Shown one piece after another: positions 28,916 to 56,218 of a DNA stretch of 64,000 bases. The stretch is from a virus. Where the stretch lies: positions 32,001 through 96,000 of IMG/VR virus record IMGVR_UViG_3300047444_000783; one strand, written 5' to 3'. The notes beneath the pieces were generated by a model that saw only the letters and a program-made list of their open reading frames with translations, was not told the DNA's origin and did no database searches. Both the position numbers and the translations under genes were made by a program. Numbering within the stretch: the stretch's first letter is position 1; every line of letters starts with the position of its first letter.

Positions 28916-28976
28916 AGAATAAGCGTCATAAACAGTACGGAAACCGGCCGCACTCCGGACCGCCTGACTCTAACGT

Positions 28977-30311: not shown

Positions 30312-30319
30312 CGGTCCTC

Positions 30320-38068: not shown

Positions 38069-38950
38069 TTAAAATTTGCCCTCGTTGACAAGTTCCTGGC
38101 CGGCCGCAGCCGCCGCTTCCTGCCACGTGGCGTATCCTTTGTCACCCGTGCCGCCGCTCGTGCGGTTGCGCTCCTGCTCCAGCCGTAACTCGAGCGGTCC
38201 GCGTCCTGGCGCTCCTGGACCACCCGGTCCGCCGCCGCCTGGCACGTTCTGATTCGTGTTGTGCTTTTCAGCCCATTCCTTTTCCCACTGAGCGCGCTCG
38301 AGTTTCTTGAGTTCGTCCGCGTTCTTGGCCGTGTAGGCTTCGGATAGATCGAGGTTCTTACCGAGAGCCGCCTGATCGTTCGTGAACTTGATCAACTCGG
38401 TGATCTCGGCCTTCGTCATGCGCTTGCCGAACTTCTCGATGTGGCTGGCCTGGATTTCGTTGATCGTCAGGATCTGGTCGCCGATAAATCCAATCCCGTC
38501 CTGCCATTTCTTATTCAACTCGTCTGGCGTCACGACGCTCTTCAGCCGCTCCTGGAGACCAGTGATGCCGGCGCTGAGTTTCGCGATTTCCTTGGATACC
38601 GCATCCTCTTCAGCGGGCGTCCGCTCGCCACCGCGGCCCGATCCGCCAGCGGCTTCGAGTTCGGCGATTCGTGCCTGGGCTGCCGTGACCGCGTCATTCG
38701 CCTTCTTGACTTCGTCTTTCCATGCGGTGACAGCGGCATTCGATTTGTCGTAAAAGTCTTTGTTCTTGACGTCCCAATCGGCTTTCTCAGCCTTCAGGGC
38801 ATTCGCCTGGCGGGTGTAATCTTCGCGCGACATCCACAGATTCTGAACATCGGCCGGCGCGTCCTCGAGCGTGGCAATCAGGTTCGCTCGGTACTTCTCG
38901 TCCATCTGCGTCTTTTCAAGCTGCTCTTTGAGTTTCGGATTAATTGGCAT
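38069..38950 (-). CDS. Capsid scaffolding protein (293 aa)
   Basis: EDYTRQ motif, charged coiled coil, Gly/Pro tail; immediately upstream of MCP. Confidence 0.8.
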   Translation of the reverse strand: MPINPKLKEQLEKTQMDEKYRANLIATLEDAPADVQNLWMSREDYTRQANALKAEKADWDVKNKDFYDKSNAAVTAWKDEVKKANDAVTAAQARIAELEAAGGSGRGGERTPAEEDAVSKEIAKLSAGITGLQERLKSVVTPDELNKKWQDGIGFIGDQILTINEIQASHIEKFGKRMTKAEITELIKFTNDQAALGKNLDLSEAYTAKNADELKKLERAQWEKEWAEKHNTNQNVPGGGGPGGPGAPGRGPLELRLEQERNRTSGGTGDKGYATWQEAAAAAGQELVNEGKF

Positions 38951-39177: not shown

Positions 39178-39372
39178 TCAAGAGCGGTTCCAAATCTCTG
39201 TCAAATCCTGCTTGACGCTCAGGTATGTGGGTGTGATTTTGAGGCGTTGGAGTTGCGTGAACGACAGGATGTACGAGCCGTTCCCGACGATGATGCTCGT
39301 CAGACCGCCGGATGACGAGTTCGGGGTCGTGTCACCGAAATAGGTCTGACCGAAATAGAAGGCGCCGAACAT
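39178..39372 (-). CDS. Small protein with FG-repeat N-terminus (64 aa)
   Basis: MFGAFYFGQTYFG start; directly abuts the GT stop. Confidence 0.6.
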   Translation of the reverse strand: MFGAFYFGQTYFGDTTPNSSSGGLTSIIVGNGSYILSFTQLQRLKITPTYLSVKQDLTEIWNRS

Positions 39373-40101
39373 TTACATACACTCCGATGGGCACTCTCTG
39401 TGGGCGCGCCACTCATCCGCGTACGGCGCGTCCTCATATCCAATGACGTCCGGCACCCCTTCGGTGTAGTGGACGATCGCCGGGTCGAGATCGGGCGACG
39501 AATGGCCGGCCAGCCAGTTCCACTCCTCCGGCAGCCGTCCGATCTGGCTGTCATCCAACCAGCAGAACCGATGGAGGTCGCGGCCTGGCAGACTGTTCAG
39601 CGCCGTCAGCGTCAGCTTCTGGTGCGCCGGATGCTCGAGATTCCAGAGCATCACCGAACTCCAGTTCTTACGCGCGTACGGCAGTTGAGGGTCTCCGTCC
39701 TTCTTCGTAGGCGTCTGCGGTGTGTAATCGTGCTGGACTACCATCACCGCGTACTGTGGATGCGCCAGTTTGACCAACTCCGCAATCCCGCGACGGAAGA
39801 GCACGTCACCATCGGTAAAGAGCGCCCAGCCCTTGGCCGGCAGCATCTGTGGTATGAAAAACCGTGCGATCGCATGGTCGGTCGACATCGGCGCATCCGA
39901 TACGACATCCCAGAGGCGGCCGGACCGTAAAGCCTCGGCCTGCCGCATGACCGTCCGGCGCCAATAAAGGCTTGGGATCATCCGGTAGTAAAGCGGCTGC
40001 ACGTCGACCGGCAGTTGCGTGGTGTACAGCAGCGAGTCCTTCGCAACCCTCCAGGCTTCCCGCTCGTGCGCGCTGTATCCGATAAAGACCGGGAAACTCA
40101 T
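39373..40101 (-). CDS. GT-A (GT8-like) glycosyltransferase (242 aa)
   Basis: VFIGY...E, GWALFTDGD, YAVMVVQHDY, RKNWSSVML, LPEEWNWL, HYTEG.P. Confidence 0.88.
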   Translation of the reverse strand: MSFPVFIGYSAHEREAWRVAKDSLLYTTQLPVDVQPLYYRMIPSLYWRRTVMRQAEALRSGRLWDVVSDAPMSTDHAIARFFIPQMLPAKGWALFTDGDVLFRRGIAELVKLAHPQYAVMVVQHDYTPQTPTKKDGDPQLPYARKNWSSVMLWNLEHPAHQKLTLTALNSLPGRDLHRFCWLDDSQIGRLPEEWNWLAGHSSPDLDPAIVHYTEGVPDVIGYEDAPYADEWRAHRECPSECM

Positions 40102-40241
40102 TCCGTCGGCTTGGCTTTGAGTGCCGCCCGGGCTGCCTTTAATTCGCCGAGATGACCTGTCTTAGCCAGGATGTCCGATCGAAGCGCATTGATCAGGTCG
40201 TTCAATTTTGCGAGTTCAGCCTGCTTTTCGTCTGCTGTCAT
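40098..40241 (-). CDS. Small coiled-coil protein (47 aa)
   Basis: SD AAGGAG before ATG 40241 (MTADEKQAEL...). Confidence 0.55.
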   Translation of the reverse strand: MTADEKQAELAKLNDLINALRSDILAKTGHLGELKAARAALKAKPTE

Positions 40242-41595
40242 GCTTGTTCTCCTTCTTTGACTTTGGTGCGACAACGACATAAAGTTCGGCGCCGCGGGCG
40301 ATAATCTGTCCAATCTTGAAAAACTTCTCGAGTTTCTTCCGCCACCAGGCCGCGCCCTTCTGGATCAGGTGCGTATTCCGGCCGTCCGGCAGTGTCTTGG
40401 CCGCCGGTCCGGTATTGATGGTGAAGAATCCCAACTGCCGCACGCAGCGACACAGATCGTCGAGTACGTAGAATAGTTTGTCAGGTTCGACGTGCTCAAG
40501 GACGTCCGTACAAATAACGAGGTCTGCCGATCTGGGCGACTCCTGCTTTCCCGGGATCCCTGGATCGTATTCATAGATGGGAAAGGCTAGCGCCTTCTGC
40601 AGTTGCGACTTCCCGCATCCGTAGTCCAGGACCGAGACCGGCCGGTCACTCTTCTTGGCCAACAGTCCGACCAGTTTCTGTACGGTCTCGGCATGCTTCC
40701 CACCGCCTACCCCGTACGCCAGGTTGTCCCGATGGAGTTGCGCGTTCAATTCTGCGTATTCCGCCGAAATCAATTCTGGCTTGGCGAACCCGATAACCGC
40801 CGGTGTGGCCGGTGCTCCGGACTTCTGCTGGTAATCCTTGGCCATCGCCTGGACGAGGCCTTCACCATAGAACGTCGCCTTAACATCTGGCATCTGATCC
40901 AACTCGTGCCAGGTCTCCTGCGCGCAGTGCATCACCGAAGAATTTGTGAAATATTCCTTCCCTTTGTACTCCGTGATGGCCCAGTTCCTAGGTTGATTAG
41001 GATGAGCGGCGGCATGATTGCCAACGTCTTTGCGGAAACAGCCGTCCATGCCAAAGATATGAAGTTCAGTGAATCCCATAAAGCGGGCGATCGTAAGCGC
41101 CCTCAGCCCAACACTCGAACCGCCTGTGAGCGCCCACTCGCCAGCCGGCAGCACCCGATGCACGTCCTCGTGTGGCGAGAATACGTGCCACAGTTTGACA
41201 TTGGCGCCGTGCTCCATAAGGTGTTCGATGTATTTGGGATGGCACGTCGAGGACGGCAGGTATTCGACCTCGGCATGTGGAAGCCCAAGCAATTCAACTT
41301 TATGATCGCGCGGATCTACTTCGACATGCCAACTTGGGACGATCCCGCGCTCGAGTAAGAACTTGTGAGCGCCCGAACAGGAGATGATGAACGGGAAGCC
41401 CCGGACCTGTTCCCAGGTCTCGTTGAGAGATGGCCCGTAACAGACGATAGCTACAGGGTCCTGGCGCTTGTCGTAATTCGGCTGGATACGTCCAGGCACT
41501 CGCGCGGAATTAACGCGCACCTGTTCATCGCGTAGCCAGAGAGGTACCGCGTATTGGACGTCCTGCTTTTCGTTGATATCGAGTCGCTTGCTCAT
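40216..41595 (-). CDS. Maf/DUF115 (MptE-like) glycosyltransferase - SAM methyltransferase fusion (459 aa)
   Basis: N-term VAIVCYGPSL...GIVPSWHVEVDP...GGSSVG..AL..A..MGF..LHIFGMD; C-term SVLDYGCGK, DLVICTDVLEHV. Confidence 0.82.
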   Translation of the reverse strand: MSKRLDINEKQDVQYAVPLWLRDEQVRVNSARVPGRIQPNYDKRQDPVAIVCYGPSLNETWEQVRGFPFIISCSGAHKFLLERGIVPSWHVEVDPRDHKVELLGLPHAEVEYLPSSTCHPKYIEHLMEHGANVKLWHVFSPHEDVHRVLPAGEWALTGGSSVGLRALTIARFMGFTELHIFGMDGCFRKDVGNHAAAHPNQPRNWAITEYKGKEYFTNSSVMHCAQETWHELDQMPDVKATFYGEGLVQAMAKDYQQKSGAPATPAVIGFAKPELISAEYAELNAQLHRDNLAYGVGGGKHAETVQKLVGLLAKKSDRPVSVLDYGCGKSQLQKALAFPIYEYDPGIPGKQESPRSADLVICTDVLEHVEPDKLFYVLDDLCRCVRQLGFFTINTGPAAKTLPDGRNTHLIQKGAAWWRKKLEKFFKIGQIIARGAELYVVVAPKSKKENKHDSRRKAG

Positions 41596-42644
41596 GCGTT
41601 GAATACTCCAGGCCGCGCTGCCATTTTTTGTGGCGTGAAAGACGCCGGGACCAGTGTGCCTTTCGTCCAGAAGTTGCCCAAGTTTACCTGATTATTGTAT
41701 TCCGTCGTAATCCAACTTGCCGATCTGGCGATGTTTGATAAATGGACTTCGTCGATCAGCCCGTTCCATTCACGGCCCGCTGTCCCAGGATCACGCCCGA
41801 TCGTGGTGATGACCGTGCCTGAAACGATGGTCCCGTTTGCTGCGAACGTGCCGTCCGAGGCCGAATTTACATATACCACCAGTCCGGACACGCTGTCGTA
41901 GGTCATGGCGATATGAGTCAAAGTTCCCGTACTCACCGTGTGGCTGCCTGGATCAACAAGCACCGTCCCGGAATTCAGCGTCGTATTGACATAGCACGCC
42001 ATCTTACCCGTGCTCTTGACATGGAGGGCGGCGAAAATAGTATTCGCGGCGTCTTGACTGGTGAGCGGCGTATTGTAAGTAGCACTGAGCGTCGTGGGGT
42101 TAATCCAGCCACTCATCGTGATCGCGGCCGGCTGCGACACGGCAGTCTTATCCATGTATTGAGTGCTGGCGCTGGCAAAACTACCGGCATTACCGATCTG
42201 GCCGGATGCTGATGATGACACGCTATTGTGATTCGTCAGGGTGTTGCCGCCCTGTGATGCGTCGGTACCGGTCGATGGGTCGTGGTATACGCCGTAAAAA
42301 TTAGAATCCCAGACCGACGTGCTGCTGCCGTCTGTGGACACTGCGTTGTCGCCGACAGCCATGTAGACAGTAACTCCGTCCTGGGCCGTCGGCAGAAGAA
42401 CCCACATTTCAAAAGCGCCGGTCGCCGCGCTGTACGAAACCAGTTGGAAGGTGAGTGCAACAGTTAGGCCGGAATCTGCGTAAGGACGGATATCAAATCC
42501 GTCAGTGCGCGCTTTTCCGCCGTTCGCCACAGAGGCGAAATCGGCATCGCCAGCCAGGAAGGGGACCAGCGCCGGGAAATTGGTTTGAGCAGTCCCCGCC
42601 TGGCCTGTCTGGATCCGCACGCCCTTGTAGAAACCGAATGCCAT
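41592..42644 (-). CDS. DUF2341 + LamG/ConA-like lectin-domain protein (350 aa)
   Basis: TNFPALV, DGFDIR, VWDSNFYGVYH, TMSGWI, HIAMTYD, NGLIDEV....ARSASWI..EYNNQ. Confidence 0.85.
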   Translation of the reverse strand: MAFGFYKGVRIQTGQAGTAQTNFPALVPFLAGDADFASVANGGKARTDGFDIRPYADSGLTVALTFQLVSYSAATGAFEMWVLLPTAQDGVTVYMAVGDNAVSTDGSSTSVWDSNFYGVYHDPSTGTDASQGGNTLTNHNSVSSSASGQIGNAGSFASASTQYMDKTAVSQPAAITMSGWINPTTLSATYNTPLTSQDAANTIFAALHVKSTGKMACYVNTTLNSGTVLVDPGSHTVSTGTLTHIAMTYDSVSGLVVYVNSASDGTFAANGTIVSGTVITTIGRDPGTAGREWNGLIDEVHLSNIARSASWITTEYNNQVNLGNFWTKGTLVPASFTPQKMAARPGVFNA

Positions 42645-42648
42645 GAGG

Positions 42649-45051
42649 CTACCCGATGCGGAATAGCCGCATGTAACTGCCGCGCTGGATCACCATTGCC
42701 GCGGTCGTCGTGCTGGCCGCCGCCTGCAATTGGACAACCCCGTTCGTCGAGACGACGAATATACCCTCGTATGTCGCGAAAGTACTCAAGTACGTTACGG
42801 ACGCCGGCGCGTTCGACAGGGTCGTCGAACCGGAAGCGGAATCGCCCTTCCATGGTGCGAATACGCCGACGGCCGAGATCGTTGGAGCCGCCGCGGCTGC
42901 GCTCGTCGGCATGAAGATGTAGCCGCGGGTCTGCGCCATCGCCGGGAACGTCAGCCCGAACTTCGTCGGCGCCGAGGTCGTTCCGCGGTTGAACATGATA
43001 AGCGCTTCAATGCGGTATATCTTAGCGGCGTCCACCGAAAGACTCATCCCGCTGATATTCGTCAGTCCTGTCGCGGATATCGTCTGCACCGTGCTCACAA
43101 TCACCGTCCGGACCGTGTCCAGGACGGAAACCGTCTGCGAGATGACAGATACGGCCTGCGACAGGACGGACACCGCCTGCGACAAAACGGACACCTGCTG
43201 CGAGAGGACCGACACAGCCTGGCTTACGATCGATGCCGCATTTGACGCGGCATTAGCGACGGACAGCGCGTTTGAAGCCGCCGTCGAGACAACCGAGACC
43301 GCCTGACTGACGATCGAAGCGGCATTCGATGCGGCATTCGCTACCGACAGCGCATTCGACGCGGCCGTAGAGACGATGGAAACGGCCTGCGACACGATCG
43401 ACGCCGCATTTGACGCCGCGTTCGCTACCGACAGCGCATTTGACGCGGCCGTCGAGACGATCGATACTCCCTGCGAAAGCACTGAGATCTGCTGGGAATG
43501 AAGAGAAAGCGCCTGCGATATGATGCTGATCGCATTCGATGTGACGGTCGCGCTCCCGCTGCCGCCAGTTGCATCGGCAGCCCACGCCCAATCGTAGTCC
43601 GTATTCGTATTCTTCTTGAGGACCTGGCCTGTCAGCCCTCCGGCTAACGTGCTCATCCGCTGGCTGAGAACCGAGTGGGCCTGAGATAAGACCGAAACCT
43701 GCTGCGAGAGAACGGATACTTGCTGGGAGATAATCGAAGCTGCGTTGCTGACGACGTTGATCGCGGATCCACGATTCGAGATCTCATTCGACAGGGCGTT
43801 CGATACGATCGAAGCGGCATTCGATGCGGCATTCGCCACAGATAGTGCGTTCGAGGCTGCATTTGATACGATCGACGCGGCGTTCGACGCGGCGTTGGCG
43901 ACGGATAGCGCGTTTGAGGCCGCTGTCGATACGATGGAAACAGCGTTCGATACGACGTTGATCGCGGATCCGCGGTTCGAGATCTCATTCGACACGGTCT
44001 GCGAGAGAACGGAGTGGGCCTGCGAGAGGACCGAATGCGCCTGCGATAAGACCGATACCTGCTGAGACAGGATCGAGATGGCGTTGGACAGCGCGTTGGC
44101 TATCGAAATCCGATTGGACGTCTCATTCGACAGTGCGTTCGAAACGATCGATGCAGCGTTGGATGCAGCATTCGCGACCGACAGGGCATTCGAGGCCGCT
44201 GTGGATACGATGGAAACTGCTTGGCTGACGATCGATGCCGCGTTTGATGCGGCATTCGCCACTGACAGCGCGTTTGAGGCGGCCGTCGAAACGATCGAAA
44301 CCGCCTGACTGACGATCGATACGGCGTTTGAAATGACGTTGTCCGCCGAGACTCGATTAGATATCTCATTGGAAACCGCTTGCGAGATCAGCGAGACCTG
44401 CTGGGAGATCACCGAAATCGCGTTCGAGAGGACGTTGTCGGCAGATATCCTATTCGAGGTCTCGTTCGACAGGGCATTGGATACGACAGAAACGCCCTGC
44501 GACAGCACGGAGACAGCCTGGGATAGGATAGACACGGCATTCGAAAGCGTGTCGGCCTGGGCGATCCTGGCGGCCGTTTCGACCGACAGCGCCTGGCTGA
44601 CGACAGAAACCCCCTGGCTGATCGTGTTGTCGGCCGCGACCCGAGCAGCCGTCTCTACAGATAAGGCCTGCGATACGATGCTGACACCCTGCGAGAGGAC
44701 GTTGTCGGCCGCCGCTCGAACGCTGAGTTCGTTCGAAATCGCATCCTCGACGTCCGTGAGGACCTTGGCGGTTATCGAGTTATCGATGACGTCGCCGACC
44801 AGGATCGTGCGGGCGAACGTGCCTTCCTGCGCGCGGATGATCGTGAATATACCGCCAGACGTATCGGTAACCCGAACGATCTCGCTATTGGCCTTCGTCG
44901 GTGCCGTGTTGGCTGGAGCGATCGTACAGTTAAACGGGGCAGCCGGGAAGCTGGTCGGGTCGACAGGCGTGAGCGTTGTCCCGCTCGAGGCCGGCGACGG
45001 AGCCGTCCCTACAGTGCTTTGCCCTAAATTCGCATGATTGTCGAACGACAT
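42649..45051 (-). CDS. Serine-rich coiled-coil fibre protein (800 aa)
   Basis: Fibre anchor EIVRVT...TIIRAQEGT; ~500 aa of Ser-periodic repeats; GGLTGQVLKKNTNTDYD knob; beta-sandwich tip. Confidence 0.8.
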   Translation of the reverse strand: MSFDNHANLGQSTVGTAPSPASSGTTLTPVDPTSFPAAPFNCTIAPANTAPTKANSEIVRVTDTSGGIFTIIRAQEGTFARTILVGDVIDNSITAKVLTDVEDAISNELSVRAAADNVLSQGVSIVSQALSVETAARVAADNTISQGVSVVSQALSVETAARIAQADTLSNAVSILSQAVSVLSQGVSVVSNALSNETSNRISADNVLSNAISVISQQVSLISQAVSNEISNRVSADNVISNAVSIVSQAVSIVSTAASNALSVANAASNAASIVSQAVSIVSTAASNALSVANAASNAASIVSNALSNETSNRISIANALSNAISILSQQVSVLSQAHSVLSQAHSVLSQTVSNEISNRGSAINVVSNAVSIVSTAASNALSVANAASNAASIVSNAASNALSVANAASNAASIVSNALSNEISNRGSAINVVSNAASIISQQVSVLSQQVSVLSQAHSVLSQRMSTLAGGLTGQVLKKNTNTDYDWAWAADATGGSGSATVTSNAISIISQALSLHSQQISVLSQGVSIVSTAASNALSVANAASNAASIVSQAVSIVSTAASNALSVANAASNAASIVSQAVSVVSTAASNALSVANAASNAASIVSQAVSVLSQQVSVLSQAVSVLSQAVSVISQTVSVLDTVRTVIVSTVQTISATGLTNISGMSLSVDAAKIYRIEALIMFNRGTTSAPTKFGLTFPAMAQTRGYIFMPTSAAAAAPTISAVGVFAPWKGDSASGSTTLSNAPASVTYLSTFATYEGIFVVSTNGVVQLQAAASTTTAAMVIQRGSYMRLFRIG
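43100..44740 (-). repeat. Degenerate 7/11-residue coding repeats (SQAVSIV, SNALSVANAAS, SNExSNRxSA)
   Basis: Visible in both translation and DNA; boundaries approximate. Confidence 0.85.
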
Positions 45052-45552
45052 CTACGCGTGCACCTTTATTAACCCGTTTGTCTGGTCGAAGGAAATCGCG
45101 AAAGACTGGCCGTTTCCTATACTTACGCTAGCACCGCAGTCAATCCAGGAGATGAGCGGTCCGGCCGTCGGAGTCGAGTTGTAGACCACGAGATATCGGA
45201 ACGGTCCGACCGTCCCTCCCGAGGCGGTGAGCGAGATCGGCGCGAGGACCAATCGATACAGCCCGTTGGACTGTTTGGACGAAACGACAGTCAGCAGCCT
45301 CGAGGAACAATTGACGTACGAAATCTCTGAGATGTCAGACAGGACCGCATTCGTGTTGACCGGCGACGTGGCAGTTAGGGCAAACTTCAGAGCGTCGGCC
45401 GCGAGGTCGTGCACCTTGTTCGCCAGATCCGCCACAAACTGGTTGAACGCGTTGTACTTCCCAACCGGAGGACCGGGAGTCGTACCGCTCGATGGTATGT
45501 ATCCCCCGGGGAAATACCCCCCGGGGAATCCTGGGAGATGGCTTCTCGACAT
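45052..45552 (-). CDS. Fibre-associated structural protein, paralog of 52729-53148 (166 aa)
   Basis: FNQFVADLANKVHDL...LKFALT...GPFRYLVVYN..T...LI.WID.G; TAATG coupling. Confidence 0.75.
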   Translation of the reverse strand: MSRSHLPGFPGGYFPGGYIPSSGTTPGPPVGKYNAFNQFVADLANKVHDLAADALKFALTATSPVNTNAVLSDISEISYVNCSSRLLTVVSSKQSNGLYRLVLAPISLTASGGTVGPFRYLVVYNSTPTAGPLISWIDCGASVSIGNGQSFAISFDQTNGLIKVHA

Positions 45553-48176
45553 TAGTTCAAGGTCAGCGTGCAGGTTGTCCGGTTGCCGTTGACGTCGACC
45601 GTGCAACTAATCACGTTCTTCGTATCGGCCGGGTCGCGGAAAACAATCGTCGAGGTCCCGCTGCCGGACGTTTTACCTCCAAGGGCGGATGCGATTAACC
45701 TCATAGCCTGGCGAAGGGTTTCATCGGCCCCGCTCGCCCGATCTAGTAAAGCGTCGGCCGCGCTGTTGTTACCAGCCGTCGAGAGCGAATAGCCGGCCTT
45801 GTCGTTATTGGTTCCGACCTTTACCTGTCCGGTCGTCAGATCGACCTGCCCGACGCCGGTTCCCTGGCTGACCTTCATCGTGTCTCCGGCCTGGGCTGCA
45901 GTCTTTGCCTGATCGTAGGCGGCCGTCAGAGCGTAGCCCGTCTTGTCGTTGTTGGTCGTGACGGTGACCCCGCCAGAAGCCAGACGCGAGGAGATAGCCA
46001 CGTCGATATTGTCCTTCAGGAGTTTGCCGACCGAACTGGCGGTCGCGAAGTCGCTCGAGGCTAGCAGGTCCTGCCAGACGGTAGCCGCTACCTGTGCGGC
46101 CGTCGGTGCCGTCGCACCCGGGATCGCATCGTACGGCAAGATCGCGAACGTGCTCGTGTTGTCTGGATTCGTCACCCAGGTCGCGACCGTCGCAATCTTC
46201 GTGCTGCCGACGTATGAGGTAATGAACTTCGCCTGCCCGGCGCCGGTTCCGCCCGTGATCAGAAGAAGATCGTTGCTGTAAAAATTATCAGTTGCCGAGG
46301 CCGATGCGTCGAGAGTGATCGTCGTCGCGGCTCCCGCCTGCGCGGTATTGCTACGAACGGTCTGCAGTCCCGTGTCTGCGGCGAAGGTCGCGCGATCGAT
46401 CGCGCCGTCGGCGATCACGCTCGCGTTCACGCTATTGGCCGCGAGCGATGCGACCTTGACCTGACCGGTCACAAGATCAATCTGGCCGGCGGCCGTGCCC
46501 TGGCTGACCTTCATCGTATCGCCAGCCTGAGCTGCTGTCTTTGCCGGGTCGTAAGCCGAGGTTAGAGCATAACCAGTCTTGTCGAGGTTCGTCGCGACCG
46601 TGACGTTCCCGCTCGCCAAACGACTCGAGATCGCCGCGTCGATGTTGTCGTGCAGCAGCTTGCCGATCGAAGCAGACGTCGAGAAGTCCGCCGAAGCAAG
46701 TAGGTCCTGCCAGACGGCCGTTGAAATCTGGCCGACCGTTGGGGCGCTCGCTCCAGGTACGACGTCGAATGGAAGGATGGCGAACGTGCTCGTGTTGTCC
46801 GGGTTCGTCGCCCATGTGCCGACGGTCGCGATCTTGGTCGCGCCAACATAGGCCGTGATGAACTTCGCCTGCCCGGCGCCGGTCCCGCCCGTGATCAAGA
46901 TCATGTCGTTGACGTAGAAGCTATTCGTCGCCGAAGCCCCGGCATCGAGCGTGATCGTCGTGGCCGCGCCAGCCGCCGCCGTATTCGACCGGATTGTCTG
47001 CAGCCCAGTGTCGGCCGCGAAAGTCGCTCGATCGATCGCCCCGTCTGCGATCGCGGCGGCCGTCACGCTATTCGCCGCCAGAGATGCGACGGCGACCGCT
47101 CCGCTCGACAGGTTGATCTGGTTCGCGCCCGTTCCCGAGCTGACCTTCATGATGTCGCCGGCTTGCGACGCTGTCTTTGCCGGATCGTAAGCGCTCGTCA
47201 GAGCATAGCCCGTCTTATCCAGGTTGGTCGCTACCGTCACATTGCCGGACGCCATTCGGGAGGAGATTGCCGCATCGATGTCGTCATGCAGCAGCTTACC
47301 TATCGAAGCGGCTGTTGAGAAATCGCTCGAGGCGAGCAGATCCTGCCAGACTGCCGTCGAGATCTGGCCGACTGTCGGGACGCTCGCGCCCGGGACGGAG
47401 TCGAATGGGAGGATAGCGAATGTGCTTGCCGCGGCTGGGTTTGTGGCCCAGGTCGCGACGGTCGCGACTTTCGTGCTGCCGACATACCCCGTTATAAATC
47501 GCGCCTGCCCGGCGCCGGTCCCACCCGTAATGAGAATGATGTCATTGTTGTAGAAGTTGTTTGTTGCCGACGCTCCGGCGTCGAGCGTAATCGTTGTAGC
47601 GGCTCCCGCCGTCGCGGTATTCGAACGGATCGACTGAAGCCCCGTGTCGGCGTTAAGGGCTGCGCGGTTGATCGCACCAGCCGACGCGCTGACCGTATTC
47701 ACGCCCAATTGAGCGGTCGCCGTGTTGACGGCCGCGCCAACAATCTGCCGGACGTCCACCTGGGCGTTCGTGATGTACCCGGTTGCGCTCGCTCCGTAGA
47801 AGGCGTCGTAAACGGCCGGCGTCACGACATAGCAGGGCTTGAAGACGTACAGAGCGCCCGCAACGTGAACGTTGATCTCGAGCGTCCCGACCGTCGATGT
47901 ATCTGTCGCATCGAGGGTTATATAATAATTGCCAGCCTCTTTGAAGGTCGCCCCTCCCGAGTTTTTGGCCACCGGATCAGCGCTTGCCTTCGCCAGGCGG
48001 ATATCGCTCGCGTTGATCGTCAGCGCGTTCTTTTCGGTATTCCCGTCTGACGGATCCAGGAACGGACCGATCAGATGGGTCTGAGCGCCAGTCGATTGCC
48101 GCAAGAAACACTGAGACCATGCTGGCGTCGAGACGGCGCAGAACAAAAGAATCCAGAGTAGCCGCAGTCGTTTCAT
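45552..48176 (-). CDS. Signal-peptide-bearing repeat protein (874 aa)
   Basis: MKRLRLLWILLFCAVSTPAWS|Q Sec-type leader; LRQST...IGPF.D..DG domain; three 212-aa repeats; TLRQAMRL...GNR C-terminus. Confidence 0.8.
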   Translation of the reverse strand: MKRLRLLWILLFCAVSTPAWSQCFLRQSTGAQTHLIGPFLDPSDGNTEKNALTINASDIRLAKASADPVAKNSGGATFKEAGNYYITLDATDTSTVGTLEINVHVAGALYVFKPCYVVTPAVYDAFYGASATGYITNAQVDVRQIVGAAVNTATAQLGVNTVSASAGAINRAALNADTGLQSIRSNTATAGAATTITLDAGASATNNFYNNDIILITGGTGAGQARFITGYVGSTKVATVATWATNPAAASTFAILPFDSVPGASVPTVGQISTAVWQDLLASSDFSTAASIGKLLHDDIDAAISSRMASGNVTVATNLDKTGYALTSAYDPAKTASQAGDIMKVSSGTGANQINLSSGAVAVASLAANSVTAAAIADGAIDRATFAADTGLQTIRSNTAAAGAATTITLDAGASATNSFYVNDMILITGGTGAGQAKFITAYVGATKIATVGTWATNPDNTSTFAILPFDVVPGASAPTVGQISTAVWQDLLASADFSTSASIGKLLHDNIDAAISSRLASGNVTVATNLDKTGYALTSAYDPAKTAAQAGDTMKVSQGTAAGQIDLVTGQVKVASLAANSVNASVIADGAIDRATFAADTGLQTVRSNTAQAGAATTITLDASASATDNFYSNDLLLITGGTGAGQAKFITSYVGSTKIATVATWVTNPDNTSTFAILPYDAIPGATAPTAAQVAATVWQDLLASSDFATASSVGKLLKDNIDVAISSRLASGGVTVTTNNDKTGYALTAAYDQAKTAAQAGDTMKVSQGTGVGQVDLTTGQVKVGTNNDKAGYSLSTAGNNSAADALLDRASGADETLRQAMRLIASALGGKTSGSGTSTIVFRDPADTKNVISCTVDVNGNRTTCTLTLN
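45810..47670 (-). repeat. Three tandem ~636-bp (212-aa) diverged repeats
   Basis: TCCTGCCAGA at 46069, 46705 and 47341 (exact 636-bp spacing); boundaries approximate. Confidence 0.9.
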
Positions 48177-51100
48177 TGTCGGTGTCTCCTGAAGAGTTCC
48201 ATTAAAATAGGTGCGATCGGGTTGGTAGCTCCGGCTGGTTTAAACGTCGCGACGTTCGCCAGCCAAGGACCGCTGTTGGAAGTCCAGGTCGCGGTCGCGG
48301 TGCCGCTCGACATCGCTATCTCGTATTGATTCCGCGCATCCTGCATTTGATTGAATCCAGCGCCGATCACTTCGCCACCGTTAATGTTCGCGCCAAAACC
48401 GAGGACGAGGTCACCCGTTGTGGCCGTTGCCGATGCCGATAAGGACGTGCCCGTCCCGTTGTTCGTCCCGGTATGGTCCAGCGGCGCCGTCTTGTCCGCG
48501 CCAACCCACTCGCTGACGTTGACCGTCAGGTAGTAGGGCGTGCTGATACCAGCCGTGTTCACCGTGATCGTGTTGGCGCCACCGGTGATATTTTTCGCGT
48601 AGTTCACGCATCCGATGACCCCGGTAGTCCCGAGATTGAGAATCGCTGACGGGTAGCTGTTTAATTGGCTGTCGGTGATGCTGCACGATCCGCCGGCATT
48701 GCTCAGGACGCAAGAGGCGTCCGGGCAATAGGTGATGGTGATGATATTCAGGTTCCCTGTAGTCTCAGGGATCGTGAGAGTCTGGCTTAGCGTCCCTCCA
48801 GGGCCGAGAATGATGCTCGACTGCAATTGGACCAGGCAGATCTGGTTGATCACGCAACTCTGGATATACGCGCCGATGCTCCACGGCGTCGTCCGGGGGT
48901 TACCATCCGCGTCCGTCGTGAACGTTGCGGATAGATCTAAGCCGGTGCCTGCCGCAGGGCTGCCTGGGCGAATATGGAAGTTGCCGGCCGCCGCATTAAC
49001 AAAGAGCGGATCGGTCATGCCTTCCGCTGTGCCGCATGGGGTGACGCTGCCGGCGTTCAGGTTGTTGCTGCACGTCTGTCCCGCCGTAGCATCGTTAATC
49101 GCATGACCATCCATATAGAAAATGTTGTTTTTAGCAATGACGCCGCTAGGAAGACCAGAGCCAAAGTTGTCAAAGGAGAGCGCATAGCCGGAGTTATTGA
49201 AAAGCGTATTGTTGTAGATAAAGGCTGAAGTGACCGGAGTAGAAGAAACATCAATGCCGTTGAAGTTACCGTAAACAACGTTGTTATATGCGGAGTTTCC
49301 TGCCCCAAGGCTGATAAGGATTCCGACGCACGTATCGCCTGTCACCGTGTTGTTGCGGATTACGTTCGCATGGTTGGAATGGTAAAGAACGATCGACTGG
49401 CAATAGGTATTCGTGATTCGGTTGCCGTCTATTATCGTATTGTGAGAATCCGTCGTATCGTCGCCTACATAAACGGCATGGTCGAACGCTGAAGAATTCG
49501 CTCGCCCTGTATCGATGATGTCGTTGTTCAGAATTGAACTGTTGCTAAGATCTCCTTCAATGGCGCTCCCTTCACTGACGTTCGTTCCATCGCCACCCGC
49601 CTTGTAGACCGTCCCATTTTTGACCGTCACGTCAGTCAACGCACTCCCCGGAGGAGCTAGGACGCCACCGCACTGGGCAACGAAATGAGCGTTGCAGTCG
49701 ATATAGAAACCATCAATCGTGATGTGACTGTGGGTCAACAGAAACCCGTAGTGCGTGTTGGCTGGACGGATCTTGGCGGCGTTACGGTTCGCCGCTTGGA
49801 TGATCGTCGGCGCACCCATTGAACCAACTGGCGGATTGATGTCCTGTTCGTCGTAGTTTCCATCGCCGACGATGAGCGTGTTACCGCCGACAAGGCAGCC
49901 AACTCCTCCACCAATCGTCTGCCGCGCGTGCGCGTCATCGTTTACTGTCGCCAGCGCGCACGGGTGCGTATCGTCGCCGGTCGTCCGCACGTAGTAGGTC
50001 GTCGCATTCGCAATGAAAGCCCCGGCATCCCAGGCGCCCATGCTCGGACGTGGGTTACCATCGAAGTCCGTGCAAAACGTTCCACAGAGATTCGTGCCGA
50101 ACCCGGCGGCCGGGCTGCCTGGATTAACGTGGAAATCGCCAGATCCGGCGGCGGCGAAGAGTGGGTCAGTCATCCCTTCTGTTGGATTGCATCCTGGGGC
50201 TATATTGAAATTGTTGCTGCAGGTCTCGCCGGAGAAAGAGGTCATCCCATCAGTGTTGATGCCAACACCATTATTCATATAGCAGAGGTTGTTTTCGATG
50301 GTGTTCCCTACTTGAGTGCTTCCTGAAGAACTTCTATAGATGCAACCCCCAGTATTTCCATAGATGGTATTATTCGCGAATAAAACATTTGCAGGGTCGG
50401 CATAGAAATTTACCCCGTATCCCCCATTGGTCACACCGGTGATGGTTACGTTGTAAACTTGGGTACCGCTTGTGCAATTTGCTATGAAAATCCCAACGCG
50501 AGGACTGCCATTTATGGAGCTATTGCGCAGAATGTTATTGAGGCCAGCACCAGCGTCGCAGGAACCATTTCTGAACTGGACCGCCCCTTCTGCGATGTTG
50601 ACAAACGTGTTGCCGTCGATAGTGTTATCTGATTCCTGAATGTAATAGCCTAGACCTTCATAGTTGTTGTCGAGACCGGCGCAAAATCCTCCAATGTCGT
50701 GAATATAGTTATTGGTGAATTGGTCGAAGGTAGAACCGTGCGTTCCTGGCCCAAGGTTGTCTGTGACTTCAACCGCATTTGAAGTGCTGGAGCAGTTCGA
50801 ATTATCGATGTGTTGAAAATGATGTATCTCTGAATTGACGATATCGATGTGATCGCTGTGGTTCAACCGGAACCCGTCATTCGTTGCTGGCGTATTCGCC
50901 CCATCTTCCGCTATCCCGTCGAATCTGATGTAGGATCTGCTCAACATCCAAATGACGCCAACTCCGCCGGCTGGAAGATTGATCGTCGGCTTGATGACAG
51001 CCATCCGATTATTAACAGCCTTGATGGTGGTTGGGGCACCCATCGAGCCGGACGGAATCGTGTCCGGAATGAGGGTATCGTACGTTCCGTCGTTCAGCAT

Positions 51101-52726
51101 CAACGTGTCGCCGGCAAGTGCTGTCAAGCACGCAATCCCGCCCGCAACCGTCTTCTTCGCGTGCGCGTCGTCGTTCGTCGTCGCCGAGGCGCAGGACCCT
51201 GCGTCGGAGGCGGCGGTCGTGCGAACGTAGTACGTCGCTCCCGTATAACCGGCTGGAAACGAGCAGCCGCCGGTATTGACATGCAAACGATTTTGCACGT
51301 CGAAAGCCGACTGTCCGGCGACATCATTTAATCCGCCAACGGCTGCTCCATGGGGAAATGCGCCAGTTGACGCGTCCCACAACCTGGCAGTCGTCAATAT
51401 TCCATTGACATATTCATAAAGAACGTTAGCCCCAATATCAGATCCGCCCAATCCAGCGCCGTGAAGATTAGACGCTGCCGGGATCCAGGCATAGCATGTA
51501 CCGAGTCCTGTCGGAGCGGATGTGGATGCGTTCGTAATGTTCGCATTCGGCGGCGCTGGACTATAGTTGGTTCCATTGCCGCTGGCCACCGTGTAGTTCA
51601 GGGTCCAGGTCGTCGTGGCCGTTATCTCAAATCCAAAACTTGACGAGTTGTTAATCGAGAGGCACCCCGTGCAGAAGAATGAAGGCGACGGCGCCGGGTT
51701 CGTACCGGCCGGCGCATCTGCCACAATTCCAATGCTGGTTCCGCTGCCAAACACCGACACGTTCGAGACCTGGGTATTAAGTGCCCCTCGTGGATAGATC
51801 CCCGCTTGATTTGGGTTGATGACGACCGCGTTTTTGATCGTGGTATTGGTCGGGAATGTTCCAGGATTTCGCGAGGCCTCCGTAGCCCCGTAATAATCGT
51901 TCAGCGAAATGTTTCCCAACTCCTGGTTGCTGTCGGATGTGGCCGTCGCTTGAATATCGATCCCGTCATCATTATTCTCCGAGATGTTGTTTTCAAGGAT
52001 GTCGCCGCTTTCCGGGTACGGATTGAACGCCGCATCGCCACGCAACACGTTACTGGAGACGAAGCCACTGGGGATATCCGCATACAACCTGGAATTCGCG
52101 TAGTTCCTCCTGTACGTGTTGTTCGACCCATTCTTTGTGACCACCGCGCTCCGGTGAAAGTAATAAAACTCGTTCTCCTCGATCAGAGAGTTCGTGATCG
52201 CAATGAACAGCAAGTGCTCACAATTGCAATACCGGTTATTGTGGTCGAAAATGTTTCGTCGGACCGTGATGTGGTCCCCGGTATTGAACGCCAGTAGGTC
52301 ATCGAACAGCCCGACTCCTGGCTGATCCGCGCTTTGAAAGTGCAAGCCGAGCACGCTCCAGTAGGAGCAGTGAGTCGCGAACATCGCAAACGTCGAGTTC
52401 ATTGCAGTCGCGTCGATCAGCGCCTGCCGTTCGTTCTCTGCAACGATTGTCACGGGGTTGCCTGCCGTCCCGTTATGAGCCGTCCCACTACAGTCAGCCG
52501 AAAGGAACCCGCTATTGCTCCCGTTGTAAGTCCCGTTCCGAAGAGTCAGGGTGTCGCCTGCGGTGATGATTGGGACTGCGTGAGCAAACGTCTTCCATGG
52601 AGACCCTGAAGACGTGCCCGGATTGGCGTCAGAACCGGTGGGCGAGATCCAGTATGTCGTGGCCGAGACTGTCCCCGGCAGCGCGATTAAAAACAGGCAA
52701 AGTAGAAAGATGATTTTCTTAAACAC
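48173..52726 (-). CDS. Signal-peptide-bearing protein with three tandem beta-helix (DUF1565/pectin-lyase-like) modules (~1517 aa)
   Basis: GTG start after GGGGTAGGT: MFKKIIFLLCLFLIALPGTVSA|TTYWISPTGSD. Modules open with TYWISPTGSD / TYYVRTT / TYYVRTT; DPLF...FH..PGSPA...D.DGNPR endings; many Cys pairs. Confidence 0.85.
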   Translation of the reverse strand: MFKKIIFLLCLFLIALPGTVSATTYWISPTGSDANPGTSSGSPWKTFAHAVPIITAGDTLTLRNGTYNGSNSGFLSADCSGTAHNGTAGNPVTIVAENERQALIDATAMNSTFAMFATHCSYWSVLGLHFQSADQPGVGLFDDLLAFNTGDHITVRRNIFDHNNRYCNCEHLLFIAITNSLIEENEFYYFHRSAVVTKNGSNNTYRRNYANSRLYADIPSGFVSSNVLRGDAAFNPYPESGDILENNISENNDDGIDIQATATSDSNQELGNISLNDYYGATEASRNPGTFPTNTTIKNAVVINPNQAGIYPRGALNTQVSNVSVFGSGTSIGIVADAPAGTNPAPSPSFFCTGCLSINNSSSFGFEITATTTWTLNYTVASGNGTNYSPAPPNANITNASTSAPTGLGTCYAWIPAASNLHGAGLGGSDIGANVLYEYVNGILTTARLWDASTGAFPHGAAVGGLNDVAGQSAFDVQNRLHVNTGGCSFPAGYTGATYYVRTTAASDAGSCASATTNDDAHAKKTVAGGIACLTALAGDTLMLNDGTYDTLIPDTIPSGSMGAPTTIKAVNNRMAVIKPTINLPAGGVGVIWMLSRSYIRFDGIAEDGANTPATNDGFRLNHSDHIDIVNSEIHHFQHIDNSNCSSTSNAVEVTDNLGPGTHGSTFDQFTNNYIHDIGGFCAGLDNNYEGLGYYIQESDNTIDGNTFVNIAEGAVQFRNGSCDAGAGLNNILRNSSINGSPRVGIFIANCTSGTQVYNVTITGVTNGGYGVNFYADPANVLFANNTIYGNTGGCIYRSSSGSTQVGNTIENNLCYMNNGVGINTDGMTSFSGETCSNNFNIAPGCNPTEGMTDPLFAAAGSGDFHVNPGSPAAGFGTNLCGTFCTDFDGNPRPSMGAWDAGAFIANATTYYVRTTGDDTHPCALATVNDDAHARQTIGGGVGCLVGGNTLIVGDGNYDEQDINPPVGSMGAPTIIQAANRNAAKIRPANTHYGFLLTHSHITIDGFYIDCNAHFVAQCGGVLAPPGSALTDVTVKNGTVYKAGGDGTNVSEGSAIEGDLSNSSILNNDIIDTGRANSSAFDHAVYVGDDTTDSHNTIIDGNRITNTYCQSIVLYHSNHANVIRNNTVTGDTCVGILISLGAGNSAYNNVVYGNFNGIDVSSTPVTSAFIYNNTLFNNSGYALSFDNFGSGLPSGVIAKNNIFYMDGHAINDATAGQTCSNNLNAGSVTPCGTAEGMTDPLFVNAAAGNFHIRPGSPAAGTGLDLSATFTTDADGNPRTTPWSIGAYIQSCVINQICLVQLQSSIILGPGGTLSQTLTIPETTGNLNIITITYCPDASCVLSNAGGSCSITDSQLNSYPSAILNLGTTGVIGCVNYAKNITGGANTITVNTAGISTPYYLTVNVSEWVGADKTAPLDHTGTNNGTGTSLSASATATTGDLVLGFGANINGGEVIGAGFNQMQDARNQYEIAMSSGTATATWTSNSGPWLANVATFKPAGATNPIAPILMELFRRHRQ

Positions 52727-52728
52727 AC

Positions 52729-53148
52729 CTACCCCAATTGCAGTTGAATCAATCCGGTCGGGCCGTTGAACGTCAGCGGCCACGACTCAGACTCGTTAAG
52801 AAAGACGGATGCCCCGTAATCAAACCAGGCGATCAGCGGATGATTGCTCGGCGTCGCGTTATAAATCACGATGTACCGGTATGGGCCGACGGACCCGTGT
52901 GACGCCTGGAGCGCAAGATCCTTGCACACCAGTTTGTACAGGCCGGCGGTCTGAGTCGATGAGATGACCGTGATATCGCGCGCGCTGCAGTGCCTGTAGC
53001 GGACTTCGTGGATGCTCGAGAGTACCCGATTTAACGGGCTGGGCTGGGTATTGGTGAGCGCGACCTTAAGGTCGTCGGACCCGAGGTTGTGAACCCCATT
53101 GGCGAGATCCGCCACGAACTGCTGGAACAGATTGTAGACGGCCGTCAT
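52729..53148 (-). CDS. Fibre-associated structural protein (139 aa)
   Basis: FQQFVADLANGVHNL...LKVALTN...GPYRYIVIYNAT...LIAWFDYG. Confidence 0.8.
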   Translation of the reverse strand: MTAVYNLFQQFVADLANGVHNLGSDDLKVALTNTQPSPLNRVLSSIHEVRYRHCSARDITVISSTQTAGLYKLVCKDLALQASHGSVGPYRYIVIYNATPSNHPLIAWFDYGASVFLNESESWPLTFNGPTGLIQLQLG

Positions 53149-54253: not shown

Positions 54254-56218
54254 TCAAGACGGCTTTAACAGACTCATCGGGTTGTCCGACCCCTTCCCTT
54301 TATGGGCTGGCGGGCCGCCGGCTGGAGAGGCGCTCCCGGGTGGAGGCGGCAACTCCGGCATGCCACCGGGCGCGCCACCGCCGGTCAGTGCCTGCCCAGC
54401 CTGGGCGGCCATCAGCCGCTGCGCCTGCTTGTCCTGCTCCTGGTCGAGTTCCTTCTCGACGTTGTCGTACAGGCTTTCCATGTCCATTTCCTTGTACAGG
54501 GTCTTGCGACTCATGTCGCCAGTCCGGCGCAAGGCCATGGCAATCATCTGGTTGTTCTGCTGGTTGACGTTCAGCATCGTCCCACCACCACCGATATCGA
54601 AGAAGAAGTTTTGCGCGTGATCCTCGGCTCGTCGCCCGGTCGGTACCATCGTGCTCGTGTTTGCATCGAATACGTCCTGGGAGGTCACACCCGCGCGCCC
54701 GTACATCCACATACGTCGCGACAGCGTGTAGAACTGCATCTCGTTCGGCACCATCTGGTCGCCGATATCCCGGACGCCGATCTCCATGTACCGGCCGCGC
54801 AGTCTCATGATCGTCTGCTGGGTTTCCTTCAGCCCCTGTAGGGTGTCGCCCGCTGGCGTGACTTTCTTACGCGCCAACCCATTGACGTCCAGAAGCCCTG
54901 AATCGTCGTCCATTTCGTTCTGGGCGTACATCCCCATGTTCGAAACGTAGTTCGGGAGCATCGGCGGATTCTGCCATGCCGGCGGTGACGGTGACATCGG
55001 GTTGTATCCGATCTTCGCGTTCGGCATGTTCGGATCCAGCGCATTCTTGATCGCGTCGGAGAACGCGCTATCCGGGAACAGGAATGGCGGGTTCACCGCC
55101 TTTTTAATCATATCGAGGGTCCCGGCCAGGACGGTGTTGACGATGTCCTGAAGCGGGATCTTCGACCGCAACTCGGATATTCCATGGAACTGCCACGGTA
55201 CCGGCTTCAGCCGGAGCGCGACGAACGGGAATTTCCCATGCCAGAAGAAGTTCGGACCGTCATACAGCGGATAGAGTTCGGTCCCTCCGGTGATGATCAG
55301 CCGGCCGCGAGGATAGAGCGGGGCGCCGGGCTTCACTTCGTAGTACCAGTTGGTTCCGGGCGTCCCCATCTTCACGATGTTCTGGCTGGTGTTGATCGAA
55401 TAATCCTTGATCCAGAATTCTCGATACCATGCCTGAGCAACCGCAGACTCCCCGAATTCTCGAGGACTGCCGACCCACCGCTGCATCTGCGGGCTGAGCA
55501 TGTCGAAGTTCATGGCGCCCGCCTGGCGTGGCCGTTGGAACGGCTTCGCGTAACGGGAGAGCGAATCGTCTGGCTGGACGAACGAACCGGGGCCAGGGAA
55601 GTTCCGACGGAACCAACTGATGTTCCGGACAGACTCGTATATGCAGCCTTCCCAGTCCTGCAGGTTATGCGCCGGGCCGATCGGGATCAGATCGTACGGG
55701 CTGAGCGGGTAAAGCTGGAAGTCGCCACGGCCGCCACATAGCTGCTTGTTCCAGGCGATCCGCAGGTATCCGGTCGTCAAATAGGCGTAAATGACGGCCA
55801 TCGACAGTTGGAAGTCGATGTCGTTCTTCACCCACCAGGATTTCGTGATCTTTGTCAGGAGTTCGGCCTGGTCGTCCCACGTATCCTCGTGGGCCTTGAC
55901 CTCGTAGATCGGCCGGATATCCGTCAGGATCGCGACCGTCTGCTCCATCGAACGCAGGAGGCGGTTATTGACCGGGCTGGCTTTGTAACTCGGGCGCCGG
56001 TTCGGCCACTGGTCGCCCATCAGGTAGACGATATCCTGTGGCAGGTTCTGGATTTCCTTCGAATCGCGCATCCATGCCGACCCCTCATCGAGCGCCGCAC
56101 GTAGCCACGCGCGGCGCCGGGCCGACTGCTGATCGGCAGTCAGATTCGGGTTGAAGTCCAGGAACTCGTAAGGGTGACCTTGGGCGCTAGGACCCGCCCA
56201 CGATTGAACGGTTGACAG
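54254..56218 (-). CDS. Portal protein (P22-like); probable CTG start at 56218 (track start 56071)
   Basis: YLMGDQW, NRL, GKFPFV, IPLQD.VN motifs; the open frame extends upstream through ARRRAWLRAALDEG to GGAGG-CCTT-CTG. Confidence 0.85.
   Translation of the reverse strand: MSTVQSWAGPSAQGHPYEFLDFNPNLTADQQSARRRAWLRAALDEGSAWMRDSKEIQNLPQDIVYLMGDQWPNRRPSYKASPVNNRLLRSMEQTVAILTDIRPIYEVKAHEDTWDDQAELLTKITKSWWVKNDIDFQLSMAVIYAYLTTGYLRIAWNKQLCGGRGDFQLYPLSPYDLIPIGPAHNLQDWEGCIYESVRNISWFRRNFPGPGSFVQPDDSLSRYAKPFQRPRQAGAMNFDMLSPQMQRWVGSPREFGESAVAQAWYREFWIKDYSINTSQNIVKMGTPGTNWYYEVKPGAPLYPRGRLIITGGTELYPLYDGPNFFWHGKFPFVALRLKPVPWQFHGISELRSKIPLQDIVNTVLAGTLDMIKKAVNPPFLFPDSAFSDAIKNALDPNMPNAKIGYNPMSPSPPAWQNPPMLPNYVSNMGMYAQNEMDDDSGLLDVNGLARKKVTPAGDTLQGLKETQQTIMRLRGRYMEIGVRDIGDQMVPNEMQFYTLSRRMWMYGRAGVTSQDVFDANTSTMVPTGRRAEDHAQNFFFDIGGGGTMLNVNQQNNQMIAMALRRTGDMSRKTLYKEMDMESLYDNVEKELDQEQDKQAQRLMAAQAGQALTGGGAPGGMPELPPPPGSASPAGGPPAHKGKGSDNPMSLLKPS

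Follow-up and report, generated by a model that had tools for sequence, protein, structure and literature searches.

A mobile gene cassette joining a serine-rich fibre to Maf-like and GT8-like transferases in environmental phages

The window analysed here is a stretch of 64,000 nucleotides (nt), bases 32001-96000 of IMG/VR record IMGVR_UViG_3300047444_000783, which is the 109,586-bp record of an uncultivated phage and is rated complete by CheckV. Between the genes for its portal and its major capsid protein (MCP) lies a 14-kb block (window positions 39178-53148) in which a gene for an 800-residue serine-rich fibre (42649-45051) is followed, after one intervening gene, by genes for a 459-residue fusion of a Maf/DUF115-like transferase with a methyltransferase (40216-41595) and for a 242-residue glycosyltransferase family 8 (GT8)-like enzyme (39373-40101). 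All three are on the minus strand, as is every other gene for which window positions are given below. An earlier, sequence-only reading had described the whole block as a self-contained module with which the phage builds a glycosylated, possibly O-methylated fibre by its own enzymes. The genes that it named are found at that place, all on the minus strand between portal and MCP, and they are as tightly coupled as it had said, with intergenic gaps of 0 to 12 nt or overlaps of 4 nt and a single wider gap, of 114 nt, before the GT8-like gene. Here, we identify as the likely functional core of the block a mobile three-gene cassette consisting of the Ser-rich fibre, the Maf-methyltransferase and the GT8-like enzyme, and we consider what these enzymes may modify.

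The serine-rich fibre and its neighbouring enzymes

The fibre, which is of trimeric type and is the proposed acceptor, matches the tail-fibre family phrog_8469 over residues 10-110 (E 2.8e-9) and is laid out as an N-terminal anchor (~1-105), a heptad coiled coil striped with serine (~105-640) and a C-terminal TNF/C1q-like jelly-roll knob (~645-800). Serine makes up 18.9% of the protein, compared with 3-13% of the other window proteins tallied, and its autocorrelation peaks at lags of 4, 7, 11, 14 and 21, in agreement with the Ser-periodic fibre of 800 residues described before. When large hydrophobic residues are taken as heptad positions a and d, serine occupies 86% of the b and 82% of the e positions of the stalk, flanked there by V, L or I, and in the pooled related fibres the corresponding values are 47% and 58%. 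Members of the fibre cluster average 15.5% serine against a background of 6.3 +/- 2.9%. An AlphaFold2 (AF2) model of the last 200 residues shows a helix followed by a beta-sandwich, with a mean predicted local distance difference test score (pLDDT) of 77 and of 83-95 in the knob blocks. Foldseek matched the knob model with probability 1.0 to the TNF-like lectins PLTL and BC2L-C and to 4-1BBL; cyanophage fibre tips match as well, and the best matches among BFVD models are the knobs of collagen-like phage fibres (E 1e-11, template modelling score 0.5-0.6). The model thus predicts a C-terminal jelly-roll knob of TNF/C1q-like type at the end of a trimeric-type stalk. Sequence relatives of the knob were found neither in the PDB nor in GenBank phages.

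One related locus (L044, IMGVR_UViG_3300027887_000029) encodes a 1124-residue fibre (717-4091 of that locus) with the same type of knob on a stalk of collagen-like G-S-S/G-T-S triplets, 37.5% of its residues being serine; it ends 21 nt upstream of a Maf-methyltransferase gene, and a radical-SAM/SPASM gene comes next.

The enzyme encoded downstream of the fibre is a fusion of two domains, a Maf/DUF115-like transferase (residues ~1-270) and a class I S-adenosylmethionine (SAM) methyltransferase (~275-445), as assigned from Pfam, PHROG and an AF2 model of the full protein (pLDDT 83). The first domain matches PF01973 with 75.1 bits (cut-off 34.6; E 7e-21). Its best match among PDB structures is the flagellin glycosyltransferase Maf of Magnetospirillum, 5MU5 (Foldseek E 9e-9; Z score 20.7, root-mean-square deviation 3.1 with 218 residues aligned), and the same entry was the sole match when the PDB was searched by sequence, with the single protein (4.8e-4) as with a family profile (3.7e-5). 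In an HMMER alignment, positions E324 and D415 of the Maf chain pair with D94 and D184, both of which are invariant in 20 phage homologues. The residues at Maf positions 324 and 415 are critical for the activity of Magnetospirillum magneticum Maf, where they are named Asp324 and Glu415 (10.1101/2020.06.03.131540), unlike the 5MU5 chain, which reads E324 and D415. The methyltransferase half matches phrog_24759 (2e-20) and, below the cut-off of 27 bits, PF13489 (25.5 bits, E 1.2e-5). It has motif I as D324-x-G-x-G, with D324, G326, G328, D344 and D364 all invariant, and residues 276-447 align with many SAM methyltransferases at Z scores of ~12-15, the neighbours being generic class I enzymes. 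A reading of the gene downstream of the fibre as a tail-fibre chaperone was dropped, the protein being two enzymes with invariant catalytic-type motifs.

The clusters nearest to the DUF115 domain in the ESM Atlas are 94-100% labelled viral and include stand-alone forms as well as fusions to several types of methyltransferase and to GT2. Longer polyenzymes of 675-958 residues (L007:9968-12796, L050:9935-12811 and P0086) combine the Maf-like and class I methyltransferase domains in a single frame downstream of a fibre gene with an FkbM methyltransferase, a 2-oxoglutarate-Fe(II) oxygenase of the prolyl 4-hydroxylase type, or both, which hints at sugar methylation and protein hydroxylation; the oxygenase domain (PF13640) attains the Pfam cut-off in one of these variants only.

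The third gene encodes a GT8-like, retaining-type GT-A glycosyltransferase, which matches phrog_28018 (2e-49) and falls just short of the threshold of PF01501 (23.8 bits against 24.3; E 3.8e-5). A profile of 30 homologues matches the GT8 domain of WbbM (6U4B, 5e-6) and GlyE (5GVV, 1.5e-4), an enzyme that glycosylates a pneumococcal serine-rich adhesin. The D97-x-D99 motif is invariant and aligned with the D-S-D of WbbM, and H211 is invariant within an H-Y-T-x-G motif; we presume for this C-terminal histidine the role that it has in GT8 enzymes generally. No membrane-like segment was found in the Maf-methyltransferase or the GT8-like enzyme, both of which are predicted to be soluble. The labels that the sequence-only reading had given to these two enzymes are kept.

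Recurrence of the cassette in viral loci

Relatives of the fusion are encoded by at least 564 IMG/VR stretches. They were found with an alignment of homologues as the query, a single protein as query having given no match, and the comparison of loci below concerns the best 80 of these matches, with 77 related viral loci compared with the window proteins. In a collection of 5.8 billion proteins, relatives of the fusion fall into more than 1,380 clusters, with ~57-68% identity among the best 120 listed, and the DUF115 half alone matches 1,821 clusters at 50% identity (E <= 1e-3). The cassette is thus abundant in metagenomes. The full-length fusion was not found in 50,697 GenBank phages, where only the methyltransferase half was matched, in Caulobacter giant phages, Roseobacter phage CRP-9 and a few others; and a megablast search of GenBank phages with the 14-kb block gave zero matches, as did the fibre, its LamG-domain neighbour, the Maf-methyltransferase and the GT8-like protein in NCBIfam. 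A description of a phage Maf/DUF115 enzyme or of this cassette was not found in the literature searched, which we attribute to the lack of the fused form in cultured phages.

Three protein clusters are widely shared among the 77 loci: the Maf-methyltransferase (77 loci), the fibre (46) and the GT8-like enzyme (44), the next cluster being present in 17. By tblastn, the fibre is found in 37 of the loci and the GT8-like enzyme, downstream of the Maf-methyltransferase, in 47. The order on one strand is kept as fibre, Maf-methyltransferase, zero to three extra genes and GT8-like enzyme. Upstream sequence was sufficient in 49 loci, and in 36 of them the closest gene on that side of the enzyme encodes a fibre of this cluster; the distance from the fibre stop to the enzyme start in those 36 loci has a median of 2.5 nt, often as a 4-nt overlap. 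The part of the fibre that is kept is its tip: the last ~160 residues, the knob, stand at the extreme C-terminus of the gene preceding the Maf-methyltransferase in 29 related loci, while the window's N-terminal anchor is common to only three others. When the search was reversed and begun with the knob, six loci were found, including one new locus, and a Maf-methyltransferase gene was present in all six, the new locus also having a GT8-like gene; the sample is small and was obtained with a narrow alignment of four knob sequences, as a 28-sequence alignment was too divergent to scan. Both results bear out the genomic co-occurrence of Ser-periodic fibre and Maf-methyltransferase genes that had been put forward as a check.

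The rest of the block does not travel with these three genes, nor do the portal and the capsid protein. Compared with the 77 related loci, the LamG and beta-helix proteins and the pair of small paralogues described below lacked a tblastn match at E <= 1e-5 or shared no cluster with proteins from these loci, and an 874-residue protein of the block has a short C-terminal match in two of them only. The cassette is found both in podovirus-like head modules, whose portals and capsids belong to at least two families, and in T4-like tail-fibre regions, and portal, capsid and the N-terminal anchor of the fibre vary between loci. Because the portals and capsids are unrelated and T4-like contexts occur as well, we regard the cassette as a mobile unit and not as a feature of a single lineage.

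Candidate targets of the enzymes

We propose, with moderate confidence, that the enzymes O-glycosylate and methylate exposed serines of the fibre in the cytoplasm with sugar donors supplied by the host. Late in infection, the fibre, the Maf-methyltransferase and the GT8-like enzyme would be made together in the cytoplasm, where the soluble enzymes would act on the fibre as it assembles or earlier. The Maf-like domain, with its sialyltransferase-type fold, would attach an ulosonic acid in O-linkage to stalk serines that face away from the core of the coiled coil, and the S/T-rich loops of the knob may be further acceptors; the host's cytidine monophosphate (CMP)-sugar pool would supply the donor, 3-deoxy-D-manno-oct-2-ulosonic acid (Kdo) or a nonulosonic acid. 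The GT8-like enzyme would add or extend a hexose from a uridine diphosphate-sugar and the methyltransferase would cap the glycan, giving a glycan-coated receptor-binding fibre. Modification of the co-translated fibre is the most economical reading of the observed genes, folds, conserved catalytic-type residues, synteny and co-occurrence, from which we infer what is modified, which donors are used, in which order the enzymes act and what the coat is for, be it protection, solubility or adhesion.

Maf enzymes are so far known for flagellins only, and CMP-Kdo is made by Gram-negative cells. The likeness of the phage fusion to the Maf glycosyltransferases (Magnetospirillum 5MU5 and the Maf proteins of Clostridium botulinum and Geobacillus) lies in the central DUF115/Maf_flag10 domain with both essential acidic residues, and in the type of acceptor, Ser/Thr with apolar flanks on a helical filament protein. 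Maf enzymes modify such residues and accept CMP-Kdo (PMC11339370; 10.1101/2020.06.03.131540), which fits a phage without sugar-synthesis genes. Maf proteins have a three-domain architecture with a C-terminal helical flagellin-/chaperone-like domain (PMC11339370), whereas the phage protein is without this domain and the N-terminal Rossmann-like domain and has a methyltransferase instead; its gene, moreover, adjoins a fibre gene and not flagellin or nonulosonic-acid genes.

Other known systems share parts of this arrangement. In mycobacteriophages, virion proteins are decorated by phage-encoded glycosyltransferases whose genes lie beside structural genes (Freeman et al. 2023, as cited in PMC12619734), and the likeness, judged here by gene context, is in the placement of glycosyltransferase genes inside a structural operon. 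The acceptors reported in that account are the C-termini of capsid and tail-tube subunits, the hosts are actinobacterial, and a Maf-like enzyme or a Ser-lattice fibre is not among the features reported there. Serine-rich repeat adhesins such as PsrP, which is served by the GT8 enzyme GlyE, are likewise Ser-rich fibrous surface proteins encoded beside their own glycosyltransferases, and differ in their SASA dipeptide-type repeats, GtfA/B initiation and accessory-Sec export, none of which is present here. In the exosporium protein BclA of Bacillus, an O-glycosylated stalk of repeats ends in a trimeric TNF/C1q-like knob, a layout shared by the collagen-like GSS fibre of L044, and the BclA glycan terminates in a methylated sugar; BclA differs in being a bacterial spore protein with GxT collagen repeats and unrelated transferases.

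In Caulobacter phage CcrColossus (NC_019406, 93835-103385; locus L160), downstream of the tail protein gene gp125 lie gp126 (DUF115-like), gp129 (GT8-like), gp130 (methyltransferase) and gp131 (GT9). Here gp126 is annotated as a sialyltransferase and matches PF01973 (1.5e-7), the GT8-like homologue is 36% identical to that of the window and the homologue of the methyltransferase half 38% identical. The CcrColossus enzymes differ in being unfused and known from annotation only, the DUF115 match of gp126 is weak (hhalign probability 22%), and the upstream tail protein is not homologous to the window's fibre.

Several observations weigh against modification of the fibre or against the self-contained module described before. 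NeuB (PF03102) and a CMP-sugar synthetase (CTP_transf_3, PF02348) were not found in the 109.6-kb genome, so the module depends on host donors and is not self-contained as had been claimed, and no sugar-synthesis genes are conserved beside the cassette among the 77 loci. Nor does the 14-kb block form one module, the fibre, Maf-methyltransferase and GT8-like genes alone being conserved elsewhere. Conservation of the two acidic residues may extend to the entire Pfam family, so D94 and D184 are no proof of glycosyl transfer. The fibres were clustered by BLAST without a composition filter, so that Ser/Ala-rich repeats may inflate the cluster, and the evidence covers the best 80 of at least 564 viral matches. 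Furthermore, the enzymes do not always accompany a fibre. A prophage-like region of Rhodomicrobium sp. R_RK_3 (L108, NZ_MWLK01000033.1), which has TerL, portal and an MCP of phrog_9953 (1.5e-84), and a second locus (L064) have the order MCP, one small gene, GT8-like enzyme and methyltransferase-Maf, the L108 gene being domain-swapped, and a Ser-rich fibre was not found within 8 kb of the enzymes in either. In CRP-9-like loci (L061-L078), a stand-alone methyltransferase and a GT8-like gene come after the MCP and a protein of 450-530 residues, and in phage CRP-9 itself the methyltransferase homologue is located after the coat gene.

Since these enzymes follow a capsid gene and have no Ser-rich fibre nearby, a broader target among virion proteins or host glycans is possible. 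The enzyme triad might glycosylate and methylate virion proteins generally (capsid, decoration or several proteins), as in mycobacteriophages, with the fibre neither a special nor the sole acceptor. The capsid-associated loci above speak for this explanation, and the window's own second cluster of glycan genes lies just past its capsid genes. We nevertheless consider it unlikely, as the full Maf-methyltransferase neighbours a Ser-rich fibre at near-zero spacing in most of the loci where this could be assessed, and an S/T-rich tail was not found on the window's MCP. The proposal of a glycosylated fibre in the sequence-only reading gains from the placement of the enzymes and their co-occurrence with the fibre, while glycosylation of the fibre itself stays a proposal and some relatives' enzymes follow the capsid gene.

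Alternatively, a host surface glycan or host flagellin might be what the enzymes modify, which would mask the receptor of the knob and bring about superinfection exclusion or keep progeny off debris. The fold of the knob is that of TNF-like lectins, the linkage would be explained if a knob that binds a receptor were transferred together with enzymes that change this receptor, and serotype-converting phage glycosyltransferases are well known (review text cited in PMC12619734). On the other hand, the enzymes are soluble, with neither a transmembrane segment nor a signal peptide, and are co-translated with late structural genes on contigs that mostly lack signs of lysogeny; the 459-residue enzymes are without the C-terminal flagellin-binding domain of bacterial Maf, and the Ser-rich stalks would be left unexplained. 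These points make a host target quite unlikely in our view.

Kinase chemistry is possible on structural grounds, as the DUF115 fold is common to Maf and the archaeal pterin kinase MptE, after which the Pfam family is named. The domain aligns strongly with MptE/MjHPPK 8SD5 (Z score 15.1, 192 residues), a mammalian sialyltransferase being among its structural matches too, and the cassette might then make a different modification or a small molecule with an MptE-like nucleotide-dependent kinase or other transferase. We judge this improbable, since Maf scores higher by structure and is the sole match by sequence: 8SD5 was absent from the single-sequence and the profile searches of the PDB at E <= 1. 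The domain thus lies nearer to Maf than to the pterin diphosphokinase, and the grouping with pterin diphosphokinases that the sequence-only reading had named as a refuting outcome did not appear. The constant GT8-like partner, the GT2 fusions in other viral clusters and the lack of conserved pterin or folate genes nearby also speak against a kinase; the pterin kinase reading was dropped for its lower similarity and missing pathway context. Hypermodification of phage DNA by base glycosylation or methylation is extremely improbable. DNA is a frequent target of phage glycosyltransferases and methyltransferases (Pyle et al. 2024, as cited in PMC12619734), but these genes lie inside a late structural operon, for which reason this reading was dropped; they overlap a fibre gene, and no hydroxymethylase or nucleotide-metabolism gene is conserved nearby.

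Returning to the fibre as acceptor, the recurrence of the cassette in hundreds of unrelated environmental phages suggests that many of them sugar-coat their fibres. We speculate further, and more tentatively, that the large, essentially virus-specific clade of Maf-like enzymes, together with Ser-lattice and collagen-like fibres, may represent flagellin-style O-glycosylation that runs on host CMP-Kdo or nonulosonic acids. Glycosylation of virions by phage enzymes is so far known only for mycobacteriophages (cited in PMC12619734). If this further speculation is true, fibre glycosylation would be a common and unrecognised trait of environmental phages of Gram-negative bacteria, and the fibre would be the first natural Maf substrate besides flagellin. 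Glycosylated fibres would matter for the interpretation of receptor-binding proteins in host-range prediction and for virion stability and immune recognition in phage therapy, and recombinant fibres used in structural work would be without the modification. Protein glyco-engineering could also profit from a compact Maf-like enzyme whose acceptor is simple and repetitive. The unfused version in CcrColossus offers a cultured system in which the idea is directly testable.

Remaining genes of the block and its surroundings

In transcription order along the minus strand, the window encodes TerL (58120-59691), the portal (54254-56071; phrog_156, 1.4e-6 over residues 15-557), a 208-residue protein, a 139-residue phrog_644 protein, a 1536-residue double beta-helix protein, an 874-residue protein, a second phrog_644 protein, the 800-residue fibre, the LamG protein, the DUF115-methyltransferase fusion, the GT8-like enzyme, a 64-residue open reading frame (ORF), a 293-residue helical protein and the MCP. 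The LamG/concanavalin-like protein (41592-42644, 350 residues), encoded between fibre and enzyme, matches PF13385 over residues 170-312 (8e-19), and the stop of its gene overlaps the start of the Maf-methyltransferase by 4 nt. Of its earlier label as a DUF2341/LamG lectin, the LamG part stands, and DUF2341 was not detected (Pfam, E <= 0.01). With no tblastn match in the 77 loci, it is lineage-specific.

The two small phrog_644 proteins, reported before as paralogues, are 53% identical (E 4e-50). The one encoded directly upstream of the fibre gene (45052-45606, ~139-184 residues) matches the family with 4e-10, and the one encoded directly upstream of the 1536-residue beta-helix gene (52729-53148, 139 residues) with 2e-6. 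The ESM Atlas neighbours of the latter are all viral hypothetical proteins, with a weak lead (0.86) to the podophage GP4 fibre protein gp80. As each gene lies directly 5' of a large fibre or spike gene, the pair may serve as adaptors. The 1536-residue protein (48173-52783) contains two right-handed beta-helix modules (PF13229, 3e-11; NF041518, TIGR03804) and looks like a depolymerase; it is lineage-specific. Its N-terminus is hydrophobic and signal-like, with a hydropathy maximum of 2.41 at residue 16. The 874-residue protein (45552-48176), also lineage-specific, has a Sec-like signal peptide and three repeats of ~210 residues in its translation and no Pfam or PHROG family above noise. The Sec-like N-termini of these two proteins, judged by eye from the translations, agree with the two signal-peptide proteins noted before, and export signals on proteins of a virion module are unusual. 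Abutting the GT8-like gene is the 64-residue ORF (39178-39372), a reading frame with no Pfam or PHROG family match.

On the downstream flank, the MCP (36956-37942) matches phrog_9953 (4.5e-28) and is, by distant tblastn matches, ~23-25% identical to capsid proteins of Myxococcus phages Mx8 and Mx9 and of a Microcystis phage. The presence of a prophage of the same capsid family in the Rhodomicrobium genome points to alphaproteobacterial hosts for the lineage. The helical 293-residue protein encoded directly upstream of the MCP (38069-38950), which has weak coiled-coil-type matches only, is probably the scaffold, going by its position, so that the earlier scaffold/MCP label is secured by a family match for the MCP and by position for the scaffold. 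No tRNA genes were found.

The second glycan gene cluster (25280-35963) is flanked by the capsid genes on one side and by the neck and tail genes on the other and encodes a DegT aminotransferase (26395-27444), a GT4 enzyme (27631-28665), a DUF5131 protein (28977-29903), a GNAT protein (30320-30784), a methyltransferase (30751-31260), a GT2-methyltransferase fusion (31460-32968) and a CgeB-like glycosyltransferase (35037-35963). It could supply or extend glycans, and it is not conserved together with the fibre cassette. An ORF of at least 2741 residues (2-8224), which continues past the window end, and a 1194-residue protein with an amidase-like segment (14187-17771), encoded upstream of it in transcription order, may be internal or ejection proteins.

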